64,000 bases of DNA from Octopus vulgaris. Taxonomy: Eukaryota. The stretch is from NCBI GenBank assembly GCA_951406725.2, contig OX597822.1:62000001-62064000 (forward strand). The letters are read 5' to 3'. The first letter of the stretch is position 1, and each line of letters starts with the position of its first letter. This document shows positions 4,017 to 59,135 of this stretch, piece by piece. The notes beneath the pieces are model-generated. The model was not told the origin of the DNA. It saw only the letters and a list, made by a program, of their open reading frames with translations, and did not search any database. A program made the position numbers and the translations under genes.

Positions 4017-4107
4017 CGTCGTTTTCAGAACGCAACCTATTCACTAAGAAAGTTCCGTGCTGCACGGAATTTTGTCAGTGAACAGGTCGCGGTCTCAAAG
4101 CGAGAAA
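4017..4107. repeat. Imperfect palindrome of two head-to-head hammerhead-like arms
   Basis: Centre TTCCGTGC-T-GCACGGAA at 4061; the right arm reads TTGTCA-GTGAACA-G-GTCGC..GCGA-GAAA. Confidence 0.6.
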
Positions 4108-7100
4108 CCAATCGACCGACCAACCAACCAACAAACCAGCAAATTAACTGACCAACCAGCCGACAAACCAACCAACCAACAGACATATAGCCAACCAACC
4201 AACAAACCAACCGACAAACCAATCGACAAACCTACCGACAAACCAACAAGCCAACGAACCGACAAACCAGCCAACCAACAAACCGGCCGAAAAACCAACC
4301 AACCTACAAACAAACCAACCAACCAACAACCGACCGACAAACCAACCAACCAACCAACCAACCGACCGACAAACCAACCAAACAACCAACAGACCGACAA
4401 ACCAGCCAACCAATCAACCGACCGACCGACAAACCAGACGACAATCCAACCAACCGACAAACCAGCCAACCAATCAACCGAACCGACAAACAAGCCAACC
4501 AACCAATCGACCGACAAACCAGCCGACGATCCAAACAACCGACAAACAAACGGACCCATCAATCAACCAACCGACAAATCAACCGAACAACAAACCAACC
4601 AGCCGACAAACCAACCAACCAACCAAACCAGCCGAAAATCCAACCAACCGACAAACCAACCAACCAATCAAACGACCGAACGACAACCCAGCCAACTAAC
4701 CAACCAACCGACCGACAAACCAACCAAACAACCGACCGACATACAAACCAGCCAACCAACCATTCAACCGACTGACAAACCAACCAGCCAGACAACCAAC
4801 CGACAAACCAGCCGACGATCAAACCAACCGACAATCCAACCAACCAATCAGCCGACAGACCGACAAACCAGCCAACCAACCAACCGACCAACAAAACAAC
4901 CAACAAACCAACCGACCGACAAACAAGCGGACAATCCAGCCAACCGACAAACCAACAAACCAATCAGCCGACCGACCGACAAACCAGCCAACCAACCAAC
5001 CAACCAACCGACATACAAACGAGCCAACAAACCAACCAACTGACAAACCAGCCAAACAGCGAACCAACTGACCGACAAACCAACCACACAATCAACCAAT
5101 CAACCGACAAATCAACCAACCAGCTGACCGACAAACCAGCCGACAATCCAACCAACCAACCGAACCAACCAACCAACCAACCAACCGACCGACAAACCAG
5201 CCAACCAGCCAACCAAATGACCGACAAACCAACCAACCAATCAACCAATCGCCCGACAAACAAACCAACCAACCGACCGACAAACCAGCCGACAATCCAA
5301 CCAACCAACAAAACAACCAGCCAACCAACCAACCGACAAACCAACCAACCAATCAACCAATCAACAGACAAACCAACCAACCAACCAACCGACAAACCAT
5401 CCGACAATCAAACCAACCAACAAAACAACCAACCAACCAACCGACCGACAAACCAGCCGACGATCCAAACAACCGACAAACCAACAAACCAACCAACCAA
5501 CCGACCGACAAACCAGCCGACAACCCAACCATTAAAAAACCAACCAACCAATCAACCGACCGACCGACAAACCAGCCAACCAACCGACCGACCGACAAAC
5601 CAACCCACCAACTAACCGACAAACCAGCCGACAATCCAACCAACCGACAAACCAGTCAACCAACCAATCAACCGACCGACCGACAAACCAGCCAACCAAC
5701 CGTCCGACAAACCAACCAACCAGCCAACCGACCGATAAACCAGCCGACACTCCAACCAAACGACAAACCAACCAACCAACCGACCGACAAACCGACAAAC
5801 CAAACAACCACAATCAACCAATCAACCGACAAACCAACCAACCAACCGACCGAACGACAAACCAGCTGACAATCCAACCAACCAACAAAACAACTAACCA
5901 ACCAACCGACAAACCAGCCAACCAACCAACGAAACGACCGACCGACAAACCAACCAACCAGTCAACCAACAAACCGACAAACCAACCAACCAACAAACTG
6001 ACCGACAAACTAAGCAACCAACCAGCTGACAAACCAACCAACCGACCGACCGACAAACCAGCCGACAATACAACTGACCGACAAATAAAACAACTAATCA
6101 ACCGACCGACCGACAAACCAGCCAACCAAACAAACAACCGACCGACAAACCAACCATCCAACCTACCGACAAACCAGCCGACAATCCAACCAACCGACAA
6201 ACAAGCCAACCAATCAACCGACCGACCGACAAACCAGCCAACCAACAAACCGACAAAGCAACCAACCAATCAATCGACCGAAAAACCAGCCGACAAACCA
6301 ACAAACCGACCGACAAAACAGCCAATCAACCAACCAACCGACAAACTAACCAACCAACCGACCGACCGACAAACCAGTCGACAATCCAACAAACCGACAA
6401 CCCAACCAACCAATCAACCGACCGACCGACCGACCGTCAAACCAACCAACCAATCAACCAACCAACCAACAAACTAACCAACCAACCGACCGACCGACAA
6501 ACCAGTCGACAATCCAACAAACCGACAACCCAACCAACCAATCAACCGACCGACCGACCGACCGACCGACAAACCAACCAACCAATCAACCAACCAACCA
6601 ACCAACAAACCAACCAACCAACCGACCAACAAACCAGCTAACCAACCAACCCACCGACAAACCAACCAATCAACCGACCGACCGACAAACCAGCCAACCA
6701 ACCAACCAACCGACCGACAAACCAACCAACCAGCCGACAATCCAACCAACCGACAAACCAACCTACCATTCAACCGACCGACAAACCAACCTACAATCCA
6801 ACCAATCAACAAACCAACCGACCGACCGACCGACCGACAAACCAGCCAACGAACCAACCAGTCAACCAACCGACAAACAAACCAACAATGCAACCGACCG
6901 ACAAACCAGCCGACAATCCAAACAACCGACAAACGACAAACCAACCAACCAACCGACCGACAAGCCAGCCGACAATCCAACGAAACGACAAACCAGCCAA
7001 CCAACCATCAGACAAACCAGCCAACCAGTCAACCGACCGACAAACAAACCAACAAGGCAACCGACCGACAAACCAGCCGACAATCCAAACAACCGACAAA

Positions 7101-8158
7101 CCAACCAACCAACCGACCGACAAGCCAGCCGACAATCCAACGAAACGACAAACCAGCCAACCAACCATCAGACAAACCAGCCAACCAGTCAACCGACCGA
7201 CAAACCAGCCGACAATCGAACCAACCGACAAACCAGCCAACCAACCTACCAACCGACAAACCAGCCAACCAATCAATTGACCGACCGACAAACCAGCCAA
7301 CCAACCAACCGACCGACAAACCAACCAACCAGCCAACCGACTGACAAACCAGCCGACACTCCAACCAACCGACAAACCAACCAACCAATCAACCGACCGA
7401 CCGACAAACCAACCAACCACTCAACCAACCGACCGACAAACCAACCAATCAACCAGCCGACCCACCGACAAACCAAACAACCAACCAACTGGCCGACAAA
7501 CCAGCCAACCAACCAACCGACCGACAAACCAGCCGACAATCCAACCAACCGACAAGCCAGCCGACAATCCAACCAACCCACAAACCAGCCAACCAATCAA
7601 CCGACCGACAGACAAACCAACCAAACAGCCAACCGACCGACAAACCACTCGATATCCAACCAACCGACAAACAAGCCAACCAACCAACCGACCGACAGAC
7701 AAACCAACCAACCAGCCAACCAACCGACAAACCAGCCGACAATTCAACCAACCGACAAACAAGCCAACCAACCAACCGACCGACAAACCAGCCGACAATC
7801 CAACCAACCGAAAAACCAACCAGCCATTCAACTGACCGACAATCCAACCAACCGACAAACCAACCAACCAATGAACTGACCGACCGACAAACCAGCCAAC
7901 AAACCAGGCAACCGACCGACTAACCAGCCGCCAATCCAACCACTCGACAAACCAACCAACTAACCGACCGACAAGCCAGCCGACAATCAAACCAACCGAC
8001 AAACCAGCCAACCAACCAACCGACCGACCGACAAACCAGCCAACCTACCAATCAACCGTCCGACAAACCAACTAACCAGCCAACCGACCGACAAACCAGC
8101 CGACAATCCAACCAACCGACAAACCAACTAACCAATCAACCGACCGACCAACAAAACC
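4105..8158. repeat. About 4-kb complex tetranucleotide satellite (CCAA/CCGA/ACAA variants) with higher-order duplications
   Basis: Visible directly; strand almost entirely A/C; an inverted copy of about 80 bp lies at 8172-8252. Confidence 0.95.
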
Positions 8159-10141: not shown

Positions 10142-11401
10142 TTAGGTCGTCAAGTATTAAATTTATAGTAAGGTATATGGTAAACTTTGACAGCTGCTCA
10201 TTTTGCACCATTATTATATTTTAACAATCTTTATTTTTTGTTAGAAAGCTGACACATCTATTTCTTTATTCTAACTCACTTTTCGCTTTATAAAGTATTT
10301 ATAAATCGTTTTTTTTGGGGGGGCTATTTTTGTTTAGAGATGGAGAAGTCGAAAATTCGTACAGTTTTGAAATATGAGTTCTTTCTTTGAAATACAGCAG
10401 CACAGACAGTTCGGAATATTAACAGAGTATTTCATTCTAATGTTATTATACAGCAGATAGTATCAAATTGATGTGCAAAATTTCGTTCTGCTAACTTTGA
10501 CCTCACAAATGAGCAACGAGGCCGACCTGAAACAAAAGTGGATAATGACGAACTGAAAGCCACCGTCGAAACAGATCCACCTCAAATTGCCCGTGAATTA
10601 TCGTTGTTGTTTGGTGTTAGCAAGCAAACAATATTGACTCACCTAGTTCAAATCGGTAAAGTGAAAAAGTTGGATAAGTGGGTTCCACATGAACTCAATG
10701 AAAATCAGAAACAGCAACGTTTGGAATTCTGCATTATGCTACTTTCTCATCACAAAAATGAATCATTTTTTAATCAAATTGTAACATGTGATGAGAAATG
10801 GATCCAATACAACAACCGTAAACGTTCAGCACAATGGTTGAACAAAGACGAGCCACCAAAACAGTCCAAAAAGCAAAATTCATCAAAAGAATCTGATGGT
10901 GTGTGTTTGGTGGTCTGGCGCAAGTGTGATCCATTATGATTTCATTAAACCTGGCTCATCAATCACGGCCGAAGTGTACTGCGGCCAACTGGAACAAATG
11001 ATGCAGAAACTTACAAAAAAACAGCCTAGATTAGTCAACAGATCCACTCCTATTTTATTGCAAGACAGCGCCAAGCCACACATCGCAAAAATGACATTGG
11101 CGAAACTACAGGAGTTGGAGTTGGAAGTTTTCTATCATCCACCATACTCAGCTGATCTTGCCTCCGCTGACTACCTCTTCTTTCAGAATTTGGATAACTT
11201 TTTGAGAGCAAAAAAATTTAATTCCGGCAATGCTGTAAAACATGCCTTCCAAGATCTTATTGACTCTAGATTGCCAGGTTTTTACAGTTCTGGGCTGGAC
11301 AAGCTACCGCTGAAATGGCAAAGGTGCATTGACAATAAGGGTGTATACTCTGATGAATAACACTTTTTTCTTTTCTACAAATTTCATACTTGACGACTTA
11401 A
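10142..11401 (+). mobile_element. Full-length mariner transposon, decayed
   Basis: Left terminal inverted repeat (TIR) TTAGGTCGTCAAGTATTAAATTT; right end reverse-complements to TTAAGTCGTCAAGTATGAAATTT; TA at 10140-41 and 11402-03. Confidence 0.95.
10340..11360 (+). pseudogene. Mariner DD34D transposase pseudogene
   Basis: MEKSKIR.., WVPHEL, TCDEKW, LQDSAKPH and YSADLASADY motifs; two early stops and one frameshift near 10870-10900. Confidence 0.93.
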
Positions 11402-13231: not shown

Positions 13232-16200
13232 AAATTCTTTTATTGGCCACAAGGGCTGACAAAAATCAATTATCACATAAAGGGACAAAACAGGACGAAA
13301 GGTTACAGAGGGTTTTGTCCGTTTGTAAAATCGAGTAAAAAACAGTTTAACACCGAAAGATTATAACAATGAAAATCTCCCAAAAGGGGGAGGCGTTACG
13401 AAAGGTTCCTGGTGGAAAAAACCACAAAAGCCAACGGGAGTCTGGTCAAAAGCGGGGTAGAGAGCCCCTTTCTCCTCTTGTAATACCTTTTTAAATTATA
13501 GGTGTATTCTCAGAATGGCTCCTTTCATACTTGCCATTCTTGCGACATTTATCCACCTTTCACTAAATTTGCAATCGGACAGCACTTCCCTCTCTACTCT
13601 CATCTTCCTTTTCAAGTGAAACTTGAAAAAGTTGATGAGGCCTGGGCCAAAGAGGAAATTGTCTGACCTTAGCCCTTTCAAACGGGTCCACCATACCACC
13701 TCTTTCGCTACAGCCACTAGGCAAAAGAAAACTGCCTTGCCCGCCCGGTTAAAGGAGGTCGGCGGGGCAATCTTCACTGTGGATTCAGCTGATAGCAGGA
13801 TCCGTCCTATACGCGACAGTAGCTGTTCGACATAAACCCATAGTTCAGCAATACTCGGACACTGGACGAGTGCGTGCAGAACGGTTTCGTCGTCCTGGCA
13901 GGTCCGGTTGACGGCACTTCCGTGCTGGTAGAGTTTAACTCGAACAGGAAGCGCTCCTCGGTAGCACTGCCAGGCGAGGGACCTCTGGAAATTGCCCATT
14001 GGCCCCAGCCCGAAAGTCCTCCCGAACAGACTGCTCAGCTCGTTATCGTCAACGCCTAGAGTTTCCCCGAGAACGTCGTCGCATTTTTCTTCCACTGACC
14101 CTCTATAGAACGCTAGAGTGGAACTACTTCCGATCGCATTGCCCGCCTGGCGGAGGGCGCCAAGCGCCCTTTCTCGGTCTGCGTTTGATCCAGGTCTGCA
14201 GCTCTGTCAAAGAGACGAGCTGCGGAAAGTCGCGTCTGACAAAAGACGACTACACCTGTTCACCGTCTAGAAAACGCTTGAGATGCCGTAACCTGAGCGC
14301 ATGTCTGCGCATCAGTAACCACGGCATGCCAAGGCCTCCGTTCAGCGGTCGTTGACAGCAGATGGATCGCCTGACCAGTGGTACCTGACCCTTCCACAAA
14401 AAGTCGAAGATCAAGCACACCAGCTTGACCAACCAGCGGTCGGGACAAGGGACGACGGTCAAGCGGTAATAGATGACGGATGCGATGTACGCATTCGCCA
14501 CCTCCGCTCGACCTTTCAGGGACAGCTTCCTCTCGGCCCATTTCTGGGTGAGATTGGCCCCCTGCTCGTCACTTCCACCCAGTTTTTTTCCACATGGAGG
14601 TCTGGGCCGAACCAGACTCCGAGCAGTTTAACGGGTCCGTCTGTCCAGCGCCCTACGACGCTGTTGGACGGCATGGACTTGCCTCTCCAGGTGCCTAGTT
14701 GCAAGCCCACGGACTTTTCCGCGTTAATTTTTGCCCCTGTCACCGCTTCGTATTCGTTTAGCGTCTCGTCGATCAGATCAATGTGCCTGTGGCTCGACAC
14801 TATCACGGTGACGTCGTCGGCATAGGCAGACACGCTGTTTCCACCTCCTAGATCGCGCGGGATACCCCTCAAAGCCTCCAACTTGCGCAGTAATGGCTCG
14901 AGAGTTAATACGTACAAGAGGGAGGAGAGAGGGCATCCTTGACGGACCGAACGCGAGATGTCAAACGTCTCTGAAAGGTGACCGTTCACCCGTATTACCG
15001 AGCAGATGTTGCTGTATAAAGCAGCGATCCACCCGCGGAAGACTGGACCGAAGCCGGCTGCCTTGAGAACAGCCGCTAGGTATGGATGGTCGACCCTATC
15101 GAAGGCTTTACTCTGATCTAAATTGATCAAAGCCCCACCCGCGCCAGCGTCGTTACTCACCCTCTCTATGGTGTAGCGCATGAGATGGAGATTATCGTGT
15201 ATCGACCTGGTCAGCACGGCGCATGTCTGCGCCTTTCCAATCAGCTCGTCCACGACAAGCGCCAATCTCTTGGCTAACACCTTGGCCAAAGTATCTTCAA
15301 CTCTGCATTGAGCAGAGTGATGGGCCGAAAGTTCCCTATAATGTTCCCCTTGTTTGAGTCCTTTCTCAACAAAGCCACCACTCCTCGACAAACAAAAGCA
15401 GGAATTCTCCCGTTTTGCTGCCAGTTGCAGTAGACGGTTGCCAAGAGGCCCGCAAACAAGTCTGGCATTGAAGTGTAAAGCTCGTAGGGCTGACCATCCA
15501 AATCCGGCGATCTACCTCTCGTACAGCTTTTCATCGCTTCCTCCACTTCCCAGGCAGATATCGGCCTTCCGCAGCACTCTGCCTCGCTGTCCGAGAGTTG
15601 CGGTAGGCCGTCCAGGTACACACCGAAGTCTGCACCGTTGTCCGTCCCACCGTTCGTCCCAAACAGTTGAGCAAAGTGCCGCTGAAACACCGCACACATC
15701 TGCTTCGGCTCAGAAACCTCGCGCCTGTTCTGGTCCACCAAAGACCGAATGGTCGCTTTGTTGCCCCACTTCGCCTCCGCCACGCGGGCCCATAGAGCGG
15801 CCTTAGTCCCCTCGCCGCTTAGCGAACGCGCCTTAGCTCTGACAACGTAGCCTTCGTGTTTGGCTTCAAAGTGTTGGTCGAGGGCCAACCTAGCCGCCAA
15901 CACGTCGGTTGCGATGCCTGTCTCAAGAGCCTCGTCTAGTTTTCTAACTAAATCCCGCTCCATTTTCCTACGTTCTACAGCTAGAGCCTTACTAAACCTA
16001 ATCGACTCTGCTCTAATTGCTCTCTTGAGGGCAAACCACCAGTTGTTGTTGATGATTGCCCCCGTGAGCGCCCGTGTAACTAATAAACTAATCCGGTCTC
16101 TGTAGGCTTTGCACACCATTAACGACGCGTTCAGCTTCCAGTAGCCGGGTCCCTGTCTATGTAGCCTATCTAATTCGACCGTACAGATCACGAATTTGTG

Positions 16201-18038
16201 GTCTGTGTAGTCGACTAGGTGGAAGTGTGGACACCCTATGCTGTCCTTATCCGCTGGCCTACAGAACACTCTATCTAAGTACGATCTAGACGACCCGATG
16301 CGATTAGTCCAAGTCCACATTGGCACATTCGGGTTGTCTAGTCGAAACCTGTCGAACAGCTGAAAGCGCCTGAGCAGGTTGGCGAGGCTTTTGCACCCCA
16401 CTCTCCTATCAGAAGCTCCCGTGCCCACCCGACCGAAACGTTCGTCTAAGACAGTGTTCCAATCCTCAACTAGCTCTAGAGTGTGTGACGTTCCTAGGAA
16501 AACTTCCAGACGCTTGAAATAATCGGACTGCCCTGCTCCTGTCGGAGCGTAGGCAGCCAGCAGTCTGAAAGCACCGCTATCACTACCGTCTACGTCGAGG
16601 ACCACCAACTTACCTTCAGGATCAAGGAAAACTGTCCTTATTTTCAAATCCAGACCCTTCCGAGACAACACCGCAGTACCACCACCGCCCGCTCCCGGCC
16701 GACACAGAGATAGAAAAATCTCGTATCCGCCGAAAAGGGCCGCGAGTTCCTGCGGGTCGGAGAGCCTGGTTTCACTAATGGCTGCTACATCCACGCTGTG
16801 AGACCTCAGGTCGTTTTAACAGGTGGCCTTGTTTCCAAGGTGACCCGAGGCCTCTCACATTTAAGCAACCTATTCTGAGTTTAGCCATGTTTTTCTTAAA
16901 GGTTTAAAAGGAGAAAAAGGCTCTACTTACTGTTGTTTGGTGGGGTGGCTCCCTTGTGCTTTTGCACGGGTGTTTCCACCAAGTTTTTATATAATTTTTG
17001 GGAGAAATTTCTCCCTAGCGACCCGAACATCCTTAGGGAATTTCTCTTTGATTTCACTGTATATCATTTTGTTGATTTTTATTGTCAGAATGTGTGCTGG
17101 TGGTGTATTGTGTGTTGGTATGATAAAGTCTGATACTTAGTGTCTGTGTTATCTTTTATGTATGCTATAAGTCGTTCGTTTTTTTGGGGGGTTTATTGCT
17201 GTAACGGTGTCTGTGTGTGTTGGTGTGTGTGGCAGTGATGGTGGCGAAAGTGTTGTTGTTTGTTGTTGTTGTGAGTGCATGTTATTGTTGTTGATTTGAG
17301 GAAGCTCTATTTGTTCGTGCTTCCCCTGTGTTTTGTGTGTGTCTTTTTGCTTTTCCCTTCTTTTCTTTTTGTGTGACACAGTTTGCCACTCCCCTTTCTC
17401 GCTATCAGTGCCCGCACAATCCGAGCTTACCTGATCCGGAAAGGGGACATTTGTCGGGTCAACAGTTTGTCGAAAACAGTTTGTGGGAAACGGTGATGTT
17501 GCTGTAGTAGTTGGTGTCGGTGATGGTGTTGGTGTCTCCTTCTGCGTCGTCTTCTTTGGTGTTGGTGTTGGTGTTGGTTTGGTGATGGCTGGGGGTGGTG
17601 TTGCTCTTCGTGGTGTTGGTGATGGTGTTGGTGGTGTGGCAACCTTTTGTGTTTCATGCAGTTGTTGTTTCTGTTGTTGTTGTGGTTGTTGTTGTTATTG
17701 TTGCTGTTGCTGCTGCTGTCTCTTACCTTCTGCCTCCATTCTTTTCTTGTAAATGGGGCAGTCCCTCTTTAGATGGCTTTCGCAGCTCTACAGTAACGTG
17801 TAATCTTGTGCCGTCCGGCAAATTTACAGAATCTGGGATCGTATTTAAATTGTCTTGCTGTATCTGTACAAGGAGCAGCACTCCCATTCCTGACCAGTTT
17901 TTCTCCTTGACTCTCCGTACATCCAGAATAGAGACAGTGTCCTCTATATCATAGAAGACAGCTGCCAGCAGCCAAGATATATCCAGCTCGGGCGGCACCT
18001 GGTCGAATTTGATTTTCGTTACTCGCCGACCAAGGTAT
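13232..18038 (-). mobile_element. L1/Tx1-clade LINE, 5'-truncated within ORF1
   Basis: ORF1 remnant (YLGRRVTKIKFDQVPPELDISWLL.. followed by a low-complexity tract), ORF2, and a 3' UTR ending in a GCC-CTTGT-GGC hairpin plus AATAAA. Confidence 0.92.
13496..16888 (-). pseudogene. Tx1 ORF2 (APE endonuclease + reverse transcriptase + C-terminal Zn motif), frameshifted
   Basis: MAKLRIGCLNVRGL start at 16888; SETRL, YAP, SRSYLDRV, TDH, GYWKLN, FRPITLLN, DQSKAFDRV, RQGCPLS, YADD and ETVLHALVQC motifs. Confidence 0.93.
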
Positions 18039-18406
<368 letters not shown>

Positions 18407-28598: not shown

Positions 28599-29891
28599 CG
28601 AGGGGCGTTCAATAAGTAATGTCCCTGACCTACTTCCCATAGCAGTAGAGCAACGAAACTTGGCACAGTTATTAGTCTTTTTCTATAGAGAAACCACCCA
28701 GAGTTACGCATTTCTCCCATCGTTTGATGCAGCTCTGGAGACCGTTTTTGTAGAAGACCCCAGCTTGGTCCTTCAACCTCGACGTGACTTCAGAAATCAA
28801 GGCTTCATCATCTGGGAAACGCTTTCCTTTCAAAATCAACTTCATGGCTGGGAAGAGGTGAAAATCAGAGGGTGCAAGGTCAGGAGAGTAGGGGGGATGG
28901 GGGAGGAATTCATAGCCACACGCCTGTGCTTCTGATCTGGCAACACGCGAGTTGTGGACCGGAGTGTTGTCCTACAGGAGGAGGATGCCTTTGCTGACCT
29001 TGCCCCGCCTCTTGATTTTGATAGCTTCTCTTAATTTCCTCAAAAGTGAAGCATAATATGCTCCTGTAATTGTGGTACCCTTTGCCAGGAAATCTGTCAT
29101 CACTACTCCGTCCTGGTCCCAGAAGACTGTGAGCATGACCTTGCCAGCTGAGGGCTGCACCCTTGCTTTCTTTGGAGGAGGTGAGTCACGGTGCTTCCAC
29201 TGCATTGACTGGGCTTTGGTCTCTGGATCATAGTGATGGACCCAGGTTTTATCCTGTGTAATCAGGCTTTTGAAAAAGTTTGACTCATCTTCTTGGCACA
29301 TCTCCAAATTCATCCTCGAGCACTCGACGCGTTCTTGCTTCTGGAAAGGTGTGAGCAACCTGGGAATCCATCTGGCAGACACCTTTTGCATATGCAAACG
29401 GTCATGAATGATAGTTTCCACAGACCCGGTACTAATCTTGACCTCATGGGCTATTTGGCGAATAGTTATGCGTCGATCTTCCAAAATGGCAGTCTCAACT
29501 TGACGGACAGATGCCTCATCAATGGCAGAAGGGGGGCGACCAGATCTGGGAGCTGTTTCCACAATGTTCCGACCATGTATAAATTCACGATGCCAGCGTT
29601 TTACAAGGTCATATGATGGGGCATCATCACCATAAGTTACTTTCATTTCATTAAAAGTCTCCCGTGGTGTGCGTCCTTTCAAATACAAGAACCGGATCAC
29701 TGCTCGACACTCAACAGGCTCCATTTCAGACTTGACTCAGTTCAAACACCTGTAAATCAGAAATCACAATTAGTTCAGAGCTGTAATTTGCCACTTAATC
29801 TATACAGATATAAATAATTGCACATGCAAAATTTCTGCTAGATCAAACAACTGCAAGTGGGTCAGGGGCATTACTTAGTGAACGTCCCTCG
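28599..29891 (-). mobile_element. Full-length mariner transposon
   Basis: TIRs of about 37 bp, CGAGGGGCGTTCAATAAGTAATG..; TA at 28597-98 and 29892-93. Confidence 0.95.
28672..29724 (-). pseudogene. Mariner transposase, open except one TAG at 28972-74
   Basis: WIPRLL, TQDKTW, LLL*DNTPVH, HPPYSPDLAPSDFHLF and RWEKCV, all in one frame. Confidence 0.93.
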
Positions 29892-42214: not shown

Positions 42215-44713
42215 TAGCTTTATTTTTATAGCGTGCTTTCACTTCACTACCGAGCGCAGCTCTGTGTGCCTTGGGTATGTGCTGTGATTTGTTGTGATGC
42301 TCTGATGGTTATTGTATGGAAAGTGTTCTGCGTAGGATGTTTGCAGTGCCTAGTAGTGCAATTTTCTGTATGTTATATGTGTTTGTAAGTCCTGGTGTTT
42401 TTGTTATGTATTTGTCTGAATATTTTTTTATCATGCCTAATGCACCTACTATGATAGGAATTGTTTCTGTTTTCAGATTCCACATTCTAGTTACCTCTAT
42501 TTCCAGGTCTTTGTATTTTGAGAGTTTCTCCATTTCTTTTAGAGACACGTTGTCATCAGCCGGTATTGATACATCAATTAGAAAGCATTTTTTTCTTCAT
42601 GGTCTCTGACAACTATATCTGGTCTGTTGGCCTTAATTTCTCTATCTGTGTGTATCGGCATATCCCAGAGTATGGTTGCTTTCTCGTTTTCTGTGACCTT
42701 TTCTGGTGTGTGCCTATACCATCTTTTTTTCTGTTGTTATTCCATAATGTTGGCATAGCTTCCAATGTATGTAGGTTCCAACTCTGTCATGTCTGTGAAT
42801 GTATTCCTTCTTAGCCAGGACTGGGCAGCTAGAGATAATATGATTTATTGTTTCTTGTCCATCTCCACATATTCTGCAGTTACTTGTAATATTTCTTTTC
42901 ATTACATGTTTTTGGTAATTTCTGGTGGGGAGGCTTTGGTCTTGTGCTGCAATTAAAAATCCCTCTGTTTCTGCTTTGAGTCCTGAGTTTCTCAGCCATT
43001 GCTGGGATTTTTCTTTGTCTATTTCTTTTGCGTTTAGTTTAGTCCAGTATTCACCATGAAGGGGCTTTTCTTGCCATCGTTTTATCATGGTTCGTTGCTG
43101 TTCTATTTTTAGTTTGGATTTCATTTGTTTTATAGCTTTTGTTGTTTCTTCATCTTCTTCTTCTTCTTCTTCTTCATGTTTATTAGGTGGTATGATTTCT
43201 TGTTTGTATTTGTCAGCTTCCTTAAATACTGAGAACAGTTTTTTGTTTTGCTCGTGTTTTGCCGCTATCTGGATCAGTTTTCCTTCCTTCTGAAGTAGAT
43301 ATTTTTGCAGTCCTATGGTGGTTATTTTATAGTAGGTTTCCAGCTGTATAAGGCCTCTACCACCTTCTATACATTGTATATATAGTCTTTCTATGTCAGA
43401 TTTTGGGTGATGCATCCTAGATCCTGTCATTATTTTTCTTGTTTTCCTATCTATTTTGGTCAGTTCACTTCGTGTCCAGTTAAGGATATTGTAGCTGTAA
43501 CTTATAACTGGGACAGCTAAAGTGTTGATACCTATTATCTTATTTTTAGCATTGAGCTCTGTGTTTAGTATTGATCTAACTCGTCTATAGTATTCTTTTT
43601 TTATTTTCTCTTTCATTTGTGTGTGTTGTGTCTTATCTAGTTCATGGATTCCTAAGTATTTGTAAGTTTGGCTTTGGTCTAATTCTTTTATTTCATTGGT
43701 TTTATCTAGTGTGATGTTGTTACTCTTAACTAGTTTTCCTCTTTTCATGGTTACTTTGGCGCATTTTTCTAATCCAAATTTCATATCTATTTCTTTGGTA
43801 AATCCATGAACTGTCTTTAATAGTGTTTCCAGCTGTTTGTCATTTGCAGCGTGTAGTTTTAGGTCATCCATATATAAAAGGTGGCTGATCGTTTTGCCGT
43901 AACATTTATATCCGCATCCAGTTCTATTTAGCATATCAGATAGAGGTGACAGTGCCAAGCAAAAAGGAGTGGAGAGAGCGTGTCTCCCTGGAATATTCCT
44001 CTTCTAATGGGGATGGCTTTGGTTTTCATGAGTCCCTCTTTTGTTTGGAGGTGTAGGACTGTTTGCCATTTATTCATAGAGTGCTCTATGAATTTTATGA
44101 TTGTTGGTGCTACTTTGTTAATGGCTAGTGTTTCGAGGATCCATGTGTGGGGGATGCTATCAAACGCCTTTTTGTAGTCAATCCAAGCCATACTGAGGCC
44201 TTTCTTCTTTCTGTGGCTGTCTTCAGTTATGGCTTTATTAATCATTAATTGATCTTTACAGCCATATGAGCCTTTGCGGCATCATTTCTGCTCTTCTGGG
44301 AACAGTTTGTTTTCGTCCAGGTGCTTGTTCAGCCTTTGTGATATCACTGCAGTAAATGCCTTGAACATAGTAGGGAGGCAGGTTATTGGTCTGTAGTTTT
44401 CTGGTTTTTCCTTTTCATTTGATTTGGGAATTAAGATGGTTTTCCCCTTCGTGAGCCATTCAGGCATTGTCTCTGGCTCTGCTAGTACGTTGTTAAAGTT
44501 TTCAGCCAGCTTTTTGTGCATTCCTGTTAGATATTTCAACCAGAAGTTGGGGATCTTGTCATGCCCAGGTGCCTTCCAGTTGCTTAGTCTTTGCAGTACC
44601 TGGGTGACCTCTTCAGTTGTTATGGGGGTCCAAAGTTGTTCAGATGCCGAGTTTGTTATTTTGATACTCCTTTTTTTTTTTGGTGGTTCGTTCGCCGACC
44701 ATATTTCTCTCCA
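42212..44713 (-). mobile_element. R4/Dong-like LINE (RT + CCHC + restriction-like endonuclease), 5'-truncated, in (TAA)n
   Basis: YRPITCL, WIDYKKAFDS, GIFQGD, LYMDD, CRIC..ETINHIISSC, RHD, RPDIV and KLSKYKDL motifs; (TTA)n on both flanks. Confidence 0.92.
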
Positions 44714-46394: not shown

Positions 46395-47938
46395 CTGTAG
46401 CGCCCATAATATAAGGGTCATTATAAACAAATGTATTGAAATATTTATTATAGAAGATTAACAAAACTTTGAGAGACTAGATTTTTTTACACATATTTAG
46501 ATATATCTAAATATATCTTTCGTGAATATTTCAAGGGAATGGAATAAATACTTCGTAAGTTATGAGGAAATAAACAAATAATCTTCAAAACTGCAACGGC
46601 CAAACGTTAAGGGTCACTTAGAAAAACAATGAAAACTGGAACAAGCACAAAAAGGAAACCCTTACTATTAATATTTTGTGAACATCCCTTTACTATCAAT
46701 AACCTCCTGACATCTGTTACCACAAGACAGAATTAATTTCTTGTTCCATTCGTTTTTCAATAATTTCCAGAGAGCATCTTAGTTCTTTGGATTTCTTCTT
46801 CGAGTCCCGTCTCCAATAATCTTCCAAATGTTTTCTGTAGGGTTGAGATCGGGACTTCGAGGTGGCCAGTCCATGAGATCAATCAACTCCCTCATCCCTC
46901 ATGAAAATCTTTGACTCTCTTCGCAGTGTGACAGGGATCGTTGTCCTGCTCGTTGAACTGACGAGGTTCGGAGATGTGGAATGGCATGCTGTCTAAGAAT
47001 CTGCTTGTGGATTTCAGCATTGACAGTCCCTTGTAGGTGAATAAGTGGACCAGGACCAGCAGCAGAGATCAATCCCCATACCATTACACTGCCTCCTCCA
47101 TATTTCACTGTCCTCTTCACACAAGCACGAAATAATCCGTGCATCCTGCCATCGGAACCAATCACATTAAACTTCGATTCATCGCTAAAATGAACCTGCG
47201 ACCACTGTTCTTCTGTCCAAACGACATGTTCGAGGGCGAAACGAAATCAGGCTCTTTGATTCAAAGGTTTCTTTGCCGGTGCCCGAGCAAGCAACCCAGA
47301 ACATCGTAACCTCCGAGAAACTGTTTTGCGTGATACGTTAACATCGGAAGTGGAGCTAAACTCGCATGATATCTCAGCAGCACTTTTAAACCTATCTTTC
47401 AGTGACATTATAACCATTAGATCCTGTCTTGGTGATGACTTAAAACGAGCTACAATCCGTTGCACAACACTTCTAGACCTTCCTACAGTAGTTGCTATCA
47501 AAGAATTTGACTTGCCCTCTTGGTGAAGGCACACAATCTTTCGTTTTTCATCACAGGATACCGGTTGTCTCTCACAAACCGCCATGTTTACAATTGAATG
47601 TTCCAATAATGTAAGATCATAAGAAGTAACTGTTAGCCCGTAACTATTAGCCTATAAGTGTTAGCCCATTGCAGTCTTCTAAACAACAAATACCTCGGTT
47701 AGTAGTTCATTTTTCCTAAGTGACCCATAACTTATGGCCGCTGCAATTTGGAAGATTGTTTTATTTCCTCATAACTTACGAAATATTTATTTCATTCGCT
47801 TGAAATTTTCACAAAAGATAGATATTAGATATATCTAAATATGTGTAAAAAAATCTAGTCTCAATGTGTTGTTAATCTTCTATAATAATTTTCAATATAC
47901 CTGTTTTTACTGATCCTTATATTATGGCTGCTGCTCTG
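46395..47938 (-). mobile_element. Tc1 transposon with IR/DR terminal repeats of about 240 bp, decayed
   Basis: TIRs at 46395-46635 and 47705-47938 with internal direct repeats ..TAAGGGTCA; transposase motifs FSDESKFN, TVKYGGGSVMVWG, QDNDPCH and PDLNPTENIW. Confidence 0.92.
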
Positions 47939-48650
47939 TGGGTGTGTATGAAATTCAAATTACGATATATGTAAACAAAGTTTGCTTTTTTAAAAGCATT
48001 GAGGTGTATTGAAAATAAACAGATATGGAAATAATTTATTCCCAAACGCAGATTAATGCTGAATAGCAGCATAAATAGGATAGAACATTTTTAGAATAGG
48101 ATAGAATATTTTTTAGTGGTTTTCACATTTTTTTTATTTATTATCTATTTATATGTTGTACTTGTATATTATTATTTGGTTAGAGGATATAAAAATTGAA
48201 AAGATTTTGTCTATTTATGTGGATTATTACTTGGTTAGAGAATATAATAAAAGTGAAAGAATTTTGTCTATTTATTTATTTTGACTGTCCACCAGCGACA
48301 GTGATTAAATTGACACCACGCGACGAATATCCAATACCAAACTATCTCAATCTCCATATTTAAACTGCATTAAACTTTGACAAGCTTACCTTTACCTATT
48401 CTAGAGTTACTTGAAAGGTGATGTTCCCTTCCTTCTCTTCTATTTACTCTTTTACTTGTTTCAGTCATTTGACTGCGGCCATGCTGGAGCACCGCCTTTA
48501 ATCGAGCAACTCGACCCCGGGTTGTAAGCCCAGTACTTATTCTATCGGTCTCTTTTGCCGAACCGCTAAATAACGGGGACATAAACACACCAGCATCGGT
48601 TGTCAAGCAATGCTAGGGGAACAAACACAGACACACAAACACACACACGC

Positions 48651-48681
<31 letters not shown>

Positions 48682-48824
48682 TACGACGGGCTTCTTTCAG
48701 TTTCCATCTACCAAATCCACTCACAAGGCTTTGGTCGGCCCGAGGCTATAGTAGAAGACACTTGCCCAAGGTGCTACGCAGTGGGACTGAACCTGGAACC
48801 ATGTGGTTGGTAAACAAGCTACTT

Positions 48825-51026
48825 TATTTCAAAACATTTGCCATAAAGGCAGTACACAGATTAAGTTAGCTTTGCGGGCTGGACGAGGACATTAATGAAG
48901 TGAATGATAATGAAAGAAAGATGATAAGGATGGGAGAAGACAGAAAGCGCCCGCCGACTTTTGCTTCTCTAAAACATTGTTCTTTTTAAAAAGATAAACA
49001 CAAAACGAGGTATAAAACCTCTTACAATTTTTCCCAATTTTTGGGCTTAGCAGTCCATTATTAATACAAAACGAGGTATTAATCCTCTTACAATTTTTCA
49101 ATTTTTGGACTTAAGTCCATTACTAATAATACATATCGTCCTCGAAATAGCTTGTGCCCGCGCCCTCCACCATCAACCACGCCTCCCTCAGAACGTAGTC
49201 AAGTTCCGAGTTCGCGTCGCCCGGGACCAAGTTATAATCTTCGTTGAGCTCCTTTAGCCCTAGCGTCACGTCGAACGCCACGGCCTCCACAGCTACCTGC
49301 GGAGGCCATTCGGGGTCCTGTGTGAAGGCTAAAGGTGCTCCCTTGTAGTGCTCTTCCATCACTTTTTCAATTTCTCCTCCTCTATAGAAGAGGACCAACA
49401 CATTTAGTTCTTTCGTTGGCGGCACAGTTTCCGCCAACGGTATTCCTTCTCTTGTCGGTGGCACAACCCCAACCGACGTAGTTCCGCGACATTCCGGTGC
49501 TACACTGACAGCCGGTAATGTCCCGTTTTTCTTCCTCTTTTTCTTTTTTTTTCCCTTTTCAACTGAGGGAGGGTGCGTCTCCTCCGTGGCTGGAAGATTC
49601 GCCTTCCTCTCCTCATCCCTATTATCCTTTGGTGAGCACCCATTGTTGCTCACCTTCCTCTTTCGGCCTCTGTTTGAGGAGTCCTCTGCTTTCTCGGCCG
49701 TTATCGTTCCCTCTTCTAGAGGGGTTTTACTTAACTGTTCCGGGATCCTATTTTGTTCCCGAGGACAGTTCTTCTTTATGTGGCCGGACTCCAAGCACCG
49801 ATGACACTTAGGGGGGCGACCCTCAAGCATCACCGGGTACCTGCACCCGGCCATTTTCAAAAAATCTGGAAGAACCAGATTGGCTGATTGTGTCCACAGA
49901 GTCAAAATTGCTTTCGACCCAACCCAAGCAGCCGCAGGAAGAACTTTTACATTGAGGAGCTTAGTTTCGCTGTCACCCAGACCCCGGCGGATAGTCTCCT
50001 CTATCCACTCGGGTTCTATGTCGGGTGGCAGTCCGCAGATCCAAGCTTTCATCAATTTCTTTTTTTTGTACGTGGGCAGGAATAAGATTTCCTTACCCTC
50101 CAAGGGTTTGCTAGCAAATATGCAAGCCTCTTCAGGGGTGTCAAATAGCAACCACACCGTTGCATATTTGACACCCCTGGAAATGAATTTAATTGTTGGC
50201 AAATACTCTTCCAACTCCTCCTCAATTGCCGTCTTTTCGAATAGGGCGATGGTGTCAAGTGCCTTGGAGTAGGTTCTCAACACCACCGTCCTATCTTCAC
50301 GGTCTTTTAACCACTTTTTGGGTGGTATGATTTCCCACTCCAAAATTTTGTTATTTTTCATTGCCATGTTTTTTTAAAAATATATTCAAATTAAACTCAA
50401 AAGCAGGAAGAAAAAAGTTCAAAAGTCTAAATAAAATTTGATAGATTTTTGAAAAAACAAAAAGGAGAAAGTACAACAGAAGGGAAGAAATTAACGGAAA
50501 GTCGCAATAAAGAAAAAAAACAAAAAGGGGGGGGGGTTAAATGAAGTTCAAAAGAAAGTTAATAAACAGAAAAAACACAGCAAAAATATTCTGGCCTTGC
50601 GGTACTCCCGGCCTGGGTTGAACCTGGAACGCCGCAACTGCAACACAACCTCCACAAAAATGGGTCCGAAAGGTAATCCAATAGTGGCTTATTTTTATAA
50701 TTTTCTTGCGAAGTAGTAAAACACAAGCAAACAAATTAATTTTTGCGGAGGGGCTACGCCTCCTCAAAAAGCACAATTCTCACTAAAGAGTGAGACCTTA
50801 GACACGACAACAGGCAGAGAACTATATCTGAAGTAAAGTGAAGTCTATTACCCGCAAAAAAATATTAATGCTAGATAACGTTAACTGCTAAATAACATTA
50901 AGCAAGCAATAAACTTCACTATGCTTCTAAAAATACAGAACGTCTTACCTGTCACCGAGTCAAAAGTTCAACATTTCACGTTCAAACACGTGACATTTGC
51001 AGGAGCAAAAAACAACACGTCTGTCT
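48825..51026 (-). mobile_element. ORF1-only non-autonomous L1/Tx1 derivative (HAL1-like), apparently complete
   Basis: TSD GGTAAACAAGCTACTT (48809-24) / GGTAAG-AAGCTACTT (51027-41); single ORF; ends TGCC-TTTAT-GGCA..AATAAA; 66-bp tandem duplication at 49000-49125. Confidence 0.8.
49123..50367 (-). CDS. Tx1/L1-type ORF1 (gag-like) protein with CCHC zinc knuckle, 414 aa, intact
   Basis: ATG-to-stop ORF; CHRCLESGHIKKNC; similar to the Tx1 ORF1 remnant near 18000 and to 58603-59135. Confidence 0.82.
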   Translation of the reverse strand: MAMKNNKILEWEIIPPKKWLKDREDRTVVLRTYSKALDTIALFEKTAIEEELEEYLPTIKFISRGVKYATVWLLFDTPEEACIFASKPLEGKEILFLPTYKKKKLMKAWICGLPPDIEPEWIEETIRRGLGDSETKLLNVKVLPAAAWVGSKAILTLWTQSANLVLPDFLKMAGCRYPVMLEGRPPKCHRCLESGHIKKNCPREQNRIPEQLSKTPLEEGTITAEKAEDSSNRGRKRKVSNNGCSPKDNRDEERKANLPATEETHPPSVEKGKKKKKRKKNGTLPAVSVAPECRGTTSVGVVPPTREGIPLAETVPPTKELNVLVLFYRGGEIEKVMEEHYKGAPLAFTQDPEWPPQVAVEAVAFDVTLGLKELNEDYNLVPGDANSELDYVLREAWLMVEGAGTSYFEDDMYY

Positions 51027-52050
51027 GGTAAGAAGCTACTTACCACACAGCCACTCCTGCGCCTATTTGTTGATACCTTTGTTTACCTACCAATGCGTTG
51101 TTTCACTTTAAGGAAGTTTATTTACCCATCCATTATGATATTTCGAACTCGACATCTTTTGACTGCGAACTGCTAAAGATTCAAAGCAGTATTCGTGAAC
51201 TGAAGTCAAACTCTTCATGTCTTCATTTTCCGTTACCTGAAGTCAATTTCAGAGTGGCCGTACACTATAAGCACATAGCAAATACATTCTTTTAACTCTA
51301 CTTTTTCAACTAGGTATTATATAGCCATTTTTGAACATACCAATCATACTTCTCCCCGAAAAAATCCTCCCTTCGCTATTGAATAAAATAAACTCGCAGA
51401 AAGGAAAGAAACTCTTACCTTTCGATTAGACACAGTGACTTGACAACGAAAAATACGATTTGTTTTTTACAGTAAATGTTTTTATTTTCGCTTTTGTTAA
51501 ACACAGTGTTTTAATCATATAGAAATATTTTAAAGTAAATATGATTTCAAAAATGTAAGCTGTTTGTACAGTAAGTATTTATATTTTAGCTTTCTTTAAA
51601 CACAATATTTTAATGGGGTTTTTTTCAAATTAATTTCAAGTGAATAAAATTACAAAAATTTTATTTGACATATTCAGAAAACATTTTAAAGTGAAAATGA
51701 CTTTTAAAATACGGTAAATATTTAGTAAAAGACCCGTTCGTAACCTCGGTGTGAAATAACTTTTTCTATAGGAGTTTTTTCGAGTGCATTCAATGTACCT
51801 CACTTCCAAGTATTTTTCTGCTATTTCTAGCACGCTCTGCAATCACGTAACAGCTATTTGCGATAAAAGACCTGAAATACCTGCTACATGGAAGCAAGGT
51901 GTGCAAAAAATAGCAACCAAATCTTTCCTTTCCTTGGGAAAGGAGTCAATTACGCATCATTTAGATGTCACATGCAGTGAAAGTATGCGCAATAACCTGG
52001 AAGAGAAAAAAACACACGAAATAAAACTCCGTTGGTGGGAAACTCAAACA

Positions 52051-58001: not shown

Positions 58002-58073
58002 GTAGGGTATATGTTTCTGTATATTAATATGCATACAGGCACAGGAGTGGCGGTGTGGTAAGTAGCTTCCTTA

Positions 58074-59135
58074 AGCTTGTCGTAGACGGACCTCTTTTTT
58101 CGGCTGCTTGATGTCACATCTTTCGTCGTGAAAATATTGAACTTTGAGGCTCGACTACAGGTAAGTGTTTGTTGTATCTGTGTTTGTTGTATCTTTTGAG
58201 GGCTTAGTGGAGTTTGTTGCTCTGTATTGAATATTTTTTGGTGAGCAACAGGCTCCAGACATTTGCCTGCCTGTGGTCGTGCATAAAAACTCACTTTGCA
58301 GTGAGAATTGTATTTTTTGAAGAGGCGTAGCTCCTACGCAAAAAATAATTTGTTTACGAAAATTGTCTTCATGTCTGTGAATTTCCACTGGATTACCAAG
58401 GAGTACCAAGGCAGGAAGGACTATTTTTGGAGCTGGAGTACCTATATCGGACTTGTGGAATATGTTGCCGTTGATTGAACTGTCTTCCTTCGTTCTTTTC
58501 TCTGTTCTGTCTTTCCGTTCTTTTTTTTTGTGTTTATTACTGAACTTTTAGAACATTTGAACTTTTGTTGAACTCTTTTTTGTTTCTTTGTGGTTTTAAA
58601 TTATGGCAACAAAGAAAACCACTGTGCTGGAGTGGGAAATTGTCCCCCCCCCCCAAGCAGTGGATAGAGGACCGAAATGGGAGAATGGTGGTGTTGAGGA
58701 CATACTCCAAGTCACTCGACACTATCACTGTGTTCTCTCAGGACGAAATTGAAAAATAGTTGGCAGAATACATACTAACTATCAAGTATATCGCAAGGAG
58801 TGCCAAATTTGCAACAGTGTGGTTACTGTTTGACACCCCTAAAGAGGCTAGCTAGTCAACCCCCTCGAAGGGGAAAAAATTTTGTTTCTCCTCACATATC
58901 GGGGAAGGAAATTGACAAGAGGCTGGGTGAGTGGCCTGTCACCCGGAATAGAGCCTGAGTTGATAGAGGATACTATCCGCCGGGGTCTGGGTAGCAGCGA
59001 AGCCAGGCTCTTGAAAGTTAAAAAGCATCCTGTTGCTGATTGGCTGGGGTCGAAAGCAATTTTGAACATATGGACCCAATCAACCAAAGATCTGGTCTTC
59101 CCAAATTTTCTAAAGATAGCCGGTTCTAGGTTTCC
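58074..59135 (+). mobile_element. Second, diverged copy of the ORF1 element after a SINE A head (58038-58073); ORF1 pseudogene from 58603, 3'-truncated
   Basis: MATKKTTVLEWEIVPP/KQWIEDR..VVLRTYSKSLDTI..ATVWLLFDTP..IEDTIRRGLG aligns with the 49123-50367 protein; 5' ends are homologous. Confidence 0.85.

Follow-up and report, generated by a model that had tools for sequence, protein, structure and literature searches.

The 64,000-nt stretch of the Octopus vulgaris genome analyzed here (assembly GCA_951406725.2, contig OX597822.1, positions 62,000,001 to 62,064,000), called the window and numbered from its first base, contains a retroelement without long terminal repeats (non-LTR) that carries a single open reading frame (ORF), ORF1, and lies within the head of a tRNA-derived short interspersed element (SINE). 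The insert is 2,202 nt long (48825–51026) and is flanked by a 16-nt repeat (48809–48824) and a 15-nt repeat (51027–51041); with its 5′ leader the element spans 2,217 nt (48825–51041, minus strand). Because the host SINE and the insert are both on the minus strand, the insertion is in sense. A preliminary description, made from the letters of the window alone, had placed such a sense insertion between the A and B boxes of the tRNA head, in agreement with the layout below, which is given 5′ to 3′ along the element.

51042–51066, minus strand: 5′ part of the host's tRNA-derived SINE head, with an A-box-like motif at 51043–51053 (intact SINE heads align to tRNA genes and receive relaxed ARAGORN calls).
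51027–51041, minus strand: 5′ target-like leader, AAGTAGCTTCTTACC; it resembles a target-site duplication (TSD) but is element-borne past about position 9 (common variant in 20 of 22 A-type copies; 55 exact copies genome-wide).
50368–51026, minus strand: 5′ untranslated region (UTR) of the subfamily A type; by copy comparison, the same ORF1 bears other 5′ UTRs in other subfamilies.
49123–50367, minus strand: ORF1, 414 aa from its ATG, with two predicted RRM-like domains, a CCHC knuckle and a K/R/P-rich C-terminal half.
48825–49122, minus strand: 3′ UTR, with neither ORF2 nor poly(A).
48825–48851, minus strand: 3′ terminal motif common to the autonomous long interspersed element (LINE), a 4-bp hairpin (48839–48851) followed by sequence ending in AAATA (covariation test).
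48809–48824, minus strand: 3′ repeat, AAGTAGCTTGTTTACC, the host SINE's own 16-nt target, which varies with the host SINE copy.
48460–48808, minus strand: rest of the host SINE, with a B-box-like motif (48783–48793), body, internal (CA)n(TA)n tract and tail.

The insert, the repeats of 15 to 16 bp and the continuation of the SINE on both sides had all been described correctly. The reading of the repeats as direct copies of SINE sequence did not hold in full: they are not identical (AAGTAGCTTCTTACC on the 5′ side, AAGTAGCTTGTTTACC on the 3′ side), and the 5′ repeat is a feature of the element family, not a copy of the local target. The end point first given, 51064, takes in the host SINE head. 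The uninterrupted 414-aa ORF with a CX2CX4HX4C knuckle and with neither reverse transcriptase (RT) nor endonuclease was confirmed as an open frame with a zf-CCHC match. The AATAAA reported at the 3′ end is present but straddles the junction, its AATA being the last four bases of the element and its AA the first two of the target, and no poly(A) tail was found at the 3′ end of the element. The window contains three other full-length copies of this SINE, to which the SINE body (around 48460–48808) was 83–87% identical.

Heads of this SINE gave their best alignments to this genome's genes for tRNA-Thr, Glu, Ala and Lys, about 3.5–5.5 standard deviations above shuffled sequences, and all three correctly oriented heads were called as tRNA by ARAGORN at a relaxed score. 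At its default setting ARAGORN called no tRNA anywhere in the window, and the one head searched against Rfam did not match a tRNA. We conclude that the host SINE head is tRNA-derived, with A and B boxes. Octopus SINEs that have been described include OR2, OK and OR1, the last of these mentioned in PMC4824008.

The last 27 nt of the element had 216 exact matches in the genome, compared with none for the reversed control, so these matches are not due to chance. In 213 of the 216, the 3′ end ran directly into the first bases of the target. The insertion base, GTGGT^AAGTAG, just past the A box, was the same in all 30 best-scoring copies and in all 40 copies taken in genome order. The 3′ flank of the latter 40 was the SINE body in 39 and another element in one. 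None of the 40 carried ORF2, the single ORF2 found within 7 kb being that of a separate tandem neighbor, and 39 kept their 5′ end. The copies were interstitial and lay on many contigs. Among 11 subfamily A loci (the subfamily of the window copy), the element itself was on average 98.5% identical, and the mean fell to 92.8% in the SINE downstream and to 45.7% in the DNA upstream of the SINE, which indicates independent insertions into older SINE copies. The preliminary description had named outcomes that would refute it: ORF2 in other copies, random flanks, or a single-copy ORF syntenic across species. None of them holds, as ORF2 is absent from the 40 copies, the insertion base is invariant in that sample and nearly so genome-wide, and the ORF is multi-copy.

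By disrupting the head, the insert plausibly disables its SINE copy, as the A and B boxes now lie 2.2 kb apart. The effect on the SINE family looks small, because only about 1% of heads are occupied: we counted 68,974 exact empty heads and 798 occupied junctions of any family, a rough ratio since the two search patterns differ in length.

The same base is used by an autonomous LINE. At L053/L071, a 5.7-kb element with an ORF1 and a 1,133-aa ORF2 lies between two ORF1-only elements, and all three are joined at the same target. Its ORF2 has APE, RT and zf-RVT domains, and its nearest solved structure is human L1 ORF2p (E=8e-66; R2, 1e-21); zf-CCHC scored above cut-off in its ORF1. All 30 best partner copies and all 20 taken in genome order were at the same base as the ORF1-only element, so that the autonomous element with a common target and 3′ end predicted in the preliminary description does exist. 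A full ORF2 frame was present in 12 of the 30, and both ORFs were open in one copy (L102). Of the 20, 13 started at the first base, 4 lacked fewer than 100 nt and 3 were deeply truncated. A sister subfamily, about 92% identical over ORF2, had 109 exact 3′ ends. We conclude from these domains that the partner has an ORF2 of L1-group type, comprising APE, RT and a zinc finger at the C-terminus. The Tx1 label is consistent with its ORF1 type and target specificity; no labelled Tx1 sequence was present among the 120 listed ORF2 homologues or the 10 clusters checked.

For the ORF1 protein of the window copy, zf-CCHC at residues 187–202 was the sole Pfam family at E<=1 (E=0.008; 16.7 bits, under the 20.8 cut-off), and Transposase_22 was not matched in this search. 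A structure model, built from a four-row alignment and with a mean pLDDT of 64, placed two beta-alpha-beta-beta-alpha-beta units upstream of the knuckle, predicted to be RRM-like (about aa 27–100 and 105–181). The top Foldseek matches to the model were tandem-RRM proteins (best E=2e-4), and the best VIA-align rows were single RRMs with a middling Z of about 7. The predicted architecture fits a type I ORF1p, defined by RRM and CCHC; an ORF1p of this type is consistent with Tx1 in animals (PMC5203782). A protein search returned only two matches, both from Octopus sinensis, one of them 63% identical.

The preliminary description had suggested computing dN/dS among copies; for the pairs formed by three clean ORF1-only families the values were 0.12, 0.13 and 0.18, and we conclude that ORF1 is maintained in such families by what these ratios indicate to be purifying selection. 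Two clusters (L063 and L068) with a frameshifted N-terminus or a deletion were set aside, and comparisons that involved the autonomous ORF1 had reached saturation. A tree of 20 ORF1 pieces, rooted at the midpoint without an outgroup, separated the two autonomous proteins from the other 18, which include one O. sinensis protein, by a 100/100 branch. The ORF1-only protein and the partner's ORF1 were 29% identical over 196 aa (E=4e-24). At the DNA level, the ORF1-only element resembled the sampled partner only in its last 37 nt and its 5′ leader. Judging from this divergence, we conclude that the ORF1-only element did not arise from the present partner simply by deletion. The distant ORF1s, the well-supported branch and the low dN/dS together indicate young copies of an old lineage, one that appears diverse and selected to keep ORF1. 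The earlier suggestion of a young element thus holds for the copies, given their high mutual identity, but not for the lineage.

A terminal 4-bp hairpin followed by AAATA was common to all families. Over 21 distinct 3′ ends, 83 of 84 cells were paired (98.8%), compared with 13–62% in controls in which the hairpin was slid. Double changes were found at two of the four pairs (6 cells), and none of 500 shuffles matched the pairing or covariation score. Stringent LINEs recognize 3′ stem-loops (PMC3747384).

At the 5′ side, 76 junctions were parsed; 8 rows classed as "other" were counted with neither subfamily A, subfamily B nor the autonomous family. A single repeat variant, shorter by one base, was common to 20 of 22 A-type 5′ ends, whereas the 3′ repeats of these copies took six forms, and this leader variant with its adjoining element sequence had 55 exact copies in the genome. 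At informative junctions, where the target is unlike the family leader, the 5′ repeat reproduced the copy's own 3′ repeat in 0 of 14 cases for subfamily B and 0 of 5 for the autonomous family. We conclude from these junctions that the 5′ repeat is mostly element-borne and not a plain TSD. A target-like leader was kept in every full-length family seen, autonomous or not, despite unrelated 5′ UTRs. Some target bases nevertheless still contribute at the 5′ side, as judged from individual copies: in one (L023) the two sides agreed in a private base, at position 7; a truncated autonomous copy (L110) had a perfect 16-bp duplication with private bases; in another (L019) the leader of the element itself came after a 16-bp duplication; and a fourth (L038) kept 16 bp.

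A splice-donor-like AG/GTAAG or CG/GTAAG was found 75–120 nt into the otherwise unrelated 5′ UTRs of subfamily A (around 50940–50952 in the window, minus strand), subfamily B (L028) and the autonomous family (L102); no spliced copy was seen for elements with this motif. The stretch searched for was present in 20 of 24 sequencing runs (four organism codes), with no RNA run listed among those containing it. Contigs from four runs gave no usable RNA ends and, among the matches listed, no 5′-UTR splice joint, a result that says nothing on expression.

Each insertion recreates the target, so that head-to-tail arrays of mixed families form. A family member lay directly upstream in 4 of the 40 ORF1-only copies in genome order, compared with 0.5–1 expected at random (binomial P 0.001–0.015, on a rough occupancy). 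At least four elements were head to tail in L032, and mixed-family arrays were found at L032, L039, L054, L022, L009, L071 and L114. One 3′-end type, with hairpin loop CTAGT, was the upstream neighbor in most arrays. A preference for occupied sites and template jumping between RNAs are candidate causes.

Modules also appeared in different combinations. One 5′ UTR occurred on different ORF1s, or one ORF1 with different 5′ UTRs (L046, L049, L050, L056, L062, L063 and L065; L031 and L043), a mosaic pattern that points to module swapping among ORF1-only families. In addition, a 106-nt mini-element (L033), in which the first 63 nt of subfamily B are joined to its last 43 nt, was found at the target with both junctions; either it arose by later deletion, or the ends suffice for mobility. 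The window contains a second, decayed relative at the same SINE base:

58060–59131, plus strand: ORF1-only relative, 5′ part only, its 3′ part lost behind a 59-bp minisatellite array; the SINE head is at about 58035–58059, and the protein groups with the ORF1-only proteins in the tree.

Taken together, we consider it very likely that the window copy belongs to a multi-copy ORF1-only non-LTR element for whose mobilization an L1/Tx1-group LINE inserting at the same base supplies ORF2 in trans, with annealing of the cDNA to the target. Starting from the observed common insertion base, ORF1-only structure, intact ORF2 partners, covarying hairpin, target-mimicking leader and 16-bp duplication in a truncated copy, we infer the following steps. 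The RNA would begin with the target-like leader and would probably extend a few bases beyond the 3′ end of the element into the target. The ORF1 protein, with its predicted RRM-RRM-CCHC architecture, may package its own RNA in cis; alternatively, it may join the partner's particle, as proposed for HeT-A, HAL1 and Ag-Sponge (PMC5786205). The partner's ORF2 would then bind the 3′ hairpin, nick the SINE at GGT^AAG and prime reverse transcription, with no need for poly(A), and the second cut, in the opposite strand, would fall about 16 nt downstream. The 16-nt overhang could then pair with the end of the cDNA, which is complementary to the leader, the element's bases replacing mismatched target bases, and trimming may occur where the cDNA end and the overhang have no homology. 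R2 RNAs likewise keep upstream target sequence, for which annealing at the 5′ junction has been proposed (PMC6895275). Such annealing of the leader would explain why the 5′ repeat is chimeric and why most copies are full length.

Several points weigh against this interpretation. The sampled partner's ORF1, at 29% identity, is on a separate branch, and the helper, whether ancestral or present, could belong to a family outside our sample. Among the first 20 unclassified junctions on one contig, 13 had an ORF1 of the ORF1-only type, 5 had neither ORF within 2.6 kb, and 2 had ORF2 ends, which were about 80% identical. The 414-aa ORF was intact in only 13 of the 30 best copies, several of the breaks apparently being in homopolymer runs, and dS between ORF1-only families was 1.7–1.9, near saturation. 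The hairpin has only 4 bp, and related rows inflate its covariation counts, so that no probability is attached to them. Truncated copies overlapped the target by 0, 0, 1, 7, 10, 13–16, 15 and 16 nt; a constant stagger of 16 nt followed by trimming is thus modeled rather than measured. The promoter, RNA ends, nick positions and trans-mobilization are likewise deduced from genomic copies.

The alternatives address different steps, and their likelihoods do not sum to one. The ORF1-only families might have arisen by repeated, independent internal deletions of unsampled autonomous LINEs, with the selection on ORF1 dating from an autonomous phase. Only part of the approximately 800 occupied sites was inspected, ORF2 was lost repeatedly in the telomeric elements of Drosophila (10.1101/2025.06.09.658640), and HAL1 arose several times in mammals (PMC5753468). 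This explanation is unlikely, however, as all 18 ORF1-only-type proteins lie on one side of the 100/100 branch from both sampled autonomous ORF1s, and most ORF1-only types have a common 3′-UTR block that was not seen in the ORF2-bearing ends L124 and L126. Moreover, all 12 unclassified copies with an ORF1 match ended 0.8–1.8 kb past the N-terminal domain, too short for ORF2.

We think it rather improbable that the TSD is only about 9 bp and the target-like leader a relic that plays no part in integration. Most full-length copies do match the target only over the first 9–10 nt, and some truncated copies overlap it by 7–10 nt. A 9-bp duplication would leave unexplained the 16 nt with private bases duplicated in L110, the 16 nt preceding the leader in L019 and the 16 nt of L038, as well as the retention of the leader in every full-length family across unrelated 5′ UTRs.

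That a tRNA gene or other Pol III gene is the true target, the SINE being struck only through its resemblance, would fit the position of the site just past the A box, a region that Dada transposons target in tRNA genes (PMC8869645), and the alignment of SINE heads to tRNA genes. Yet all 3′ flanks in the samples taken in genome order were SINE or family member (40 of 40 and 20 of 20), and the 16-nt target was not conserved in the 13 aligned tRNA genes of 20, which cover only 6 amino-acid types. A present tRNA target is accordingly very doubtful, although the ancestral target may have been a tRNA. Movement of SINE and insert as one composite element, or by segmental duplication without repeated targeting, would account for the SINE sequence around every copy and for a 5′ repeat inherited with the element, but is scarcely credible and largely refuted, given SINE flanks 92.8% and inserts 98.5% identical, flanks that come from different SINE variants, the use of one base by unrelated families as well as by the autonomous LINE, and copies that sit behind other elements without a SINE head.

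Other parts of the window were surveyed. The 414-aa ORF had been described as the only intact long ORF with a recognizable domain; this holds among complete genes, but not for open frames in general:

42714–43934: 406-aa open RT-like fragment of a broken LINE.

A broken Tx1-like LINE at about 13290–18100 (minus strand) is 53–70% identical to the partner ORF2, with another (TTA)n tract upstream, and is possibly a microsatellite-targeting sister family. As a candidate partner it was rejected: it ends in (TTA)n and has a different 3′ end. The consecutive locus tags of two distant ORF2 relatives (P0111 and P0112) in the fish Coilia grayii suggest that a clustered and possibly target-specific family exists there. 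A 4-kb degenerate (AACC)n satellite (4106–8152) yields long spurious open frames, and Mariner/Tc1-like transposase fragments were read from translations at 10472–11360, 28972–29736 and 47247–47651.

Repeats are known targets of related LINEs: Tx1L targets Tx1D in Xenopus, and Tx1-Mar targets Mariner-N4_AMi in crocodilians (PMC4494074, PMC6719617). As described there, these too are APE-type LINEs of the L1/Tx1 group in another dispersed, low-cost repeat, with a non-autonomous passenger at the same target. Their target, however, is a DNA transposon and their passengers are SINEs, whereas here the target is a SINE tRNA head, struck at one base in 213 of 216 cases, and the passengers encode ORF1. 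Keno (U2), Mutsu (5S), Dewa (tRNA-Leu spacer) and the Dada DNA transposons (tRNA A box) also insert in or beside small-RNA-type sequence (PMC3706591, PMC8869645), but into arrays of functional RNA genes rather than a retroposed tRNA derivative.

HAL1 of mammals is likewise a non-autonomous L1-group element encoding only ORF1p (PMC5753468, PMC5786205). Its ORF1p is of the mammalian type II, with a coiled coil, one RRM and a C-terminal domain, in contrast to the predicted RRM-RRM-CCHC (type I) here, and the octopus element differs further in having no poly(A) tail, a 3′ hairpin common to its partner and strict target specificity. HAL1 in the strict sense is an internal deletion of a known partner with common 5′ and 3′ DNA; the octopus element has only the last 37 nt and the leader in common with its partner. 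It falls into the broader class of non-autonomous LINEs with ORF1 (HAL1/HeT-A/Ag-Sponge) by its ORF1 without ORF2, its multi-copy independent insertions and the selection on ORF1. In HeT-A and the other ORF1-only telomeric elements of Drosophila (PMC5786205; 10.1101/2025.06.09.658640), ORF1-only lineages also beget ORF1-only lineages, occupy a niche common with ORF2 partners and form mixed head-to-tail arrays. Those elements are of the Jockey clade and telomeric, whereas the octopus elements are of the L1/Tx1 group and scattered across interstitial SINE sites that number in the tens of thousands. The RNA of R2, in 28S rDNA, carries target sequence at its 5′ end, proposed to serve in annealing of cDNA and target (PMC6895275); R2 differs in its restriction-like endonuclease and in acquiring that sequence by co-transcription and ribozyme cleavage, while the leader of these APE-type elements is heritable and family-specific.

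Repeat targeting by Tx1 elements, ORF1-only LINE derivatives and A-box-proximal targeting are each known; their combination was not found in the literature searched. We found no paper on a cephalopod LINE specific for a SINE head or on an ORF1-only Tx1-type family in a full-text search that covered papers outside subscription; Repbase and Dfam lay outside it and may hold unnamed consensus entries.

A wider reading, which we favor only slightly, is that of a HeT-A-like guild outside telomeres, in which a long-lived ORF1-only clade and a few L1/Tx1-group helpers share one tRNA-SINE base. Its members would reach about 99% site fidelity and remain mostly full length through a heritable 5′ copy of the target that anneals to the cut site, and would carry unrelated cargo on a 3′ tag of about 40 nt. 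If this is true, the system is a natural APE-type site-specific integrase, and the annealing of cDNA to target can be read directly in the genome from its chimeric junctions. A LINE that is specific to a single base, is seldom truncated at its 5′ end and uses a short RNA tag acting in trans would be of interest for targeted insertion work. Whether APE LINEs complete the 5′ junction through a branched intermediate of cDNA and target is described as remaining to be determined (PMC6895275); here, target polymorphisms and family-specific leaders mark the strand origin of each base in hundreds of natural events, which makes the question testable. Repeated ORF2 loss has been linked to telomere specialization in Jockey elements (10.1101/2025.06.09.658640, a 2025 preprint), and a parallel ORF1-only radiation in a target-specialized L1/Tx1 system would suggest that a common target favors ORF1-only passengers.

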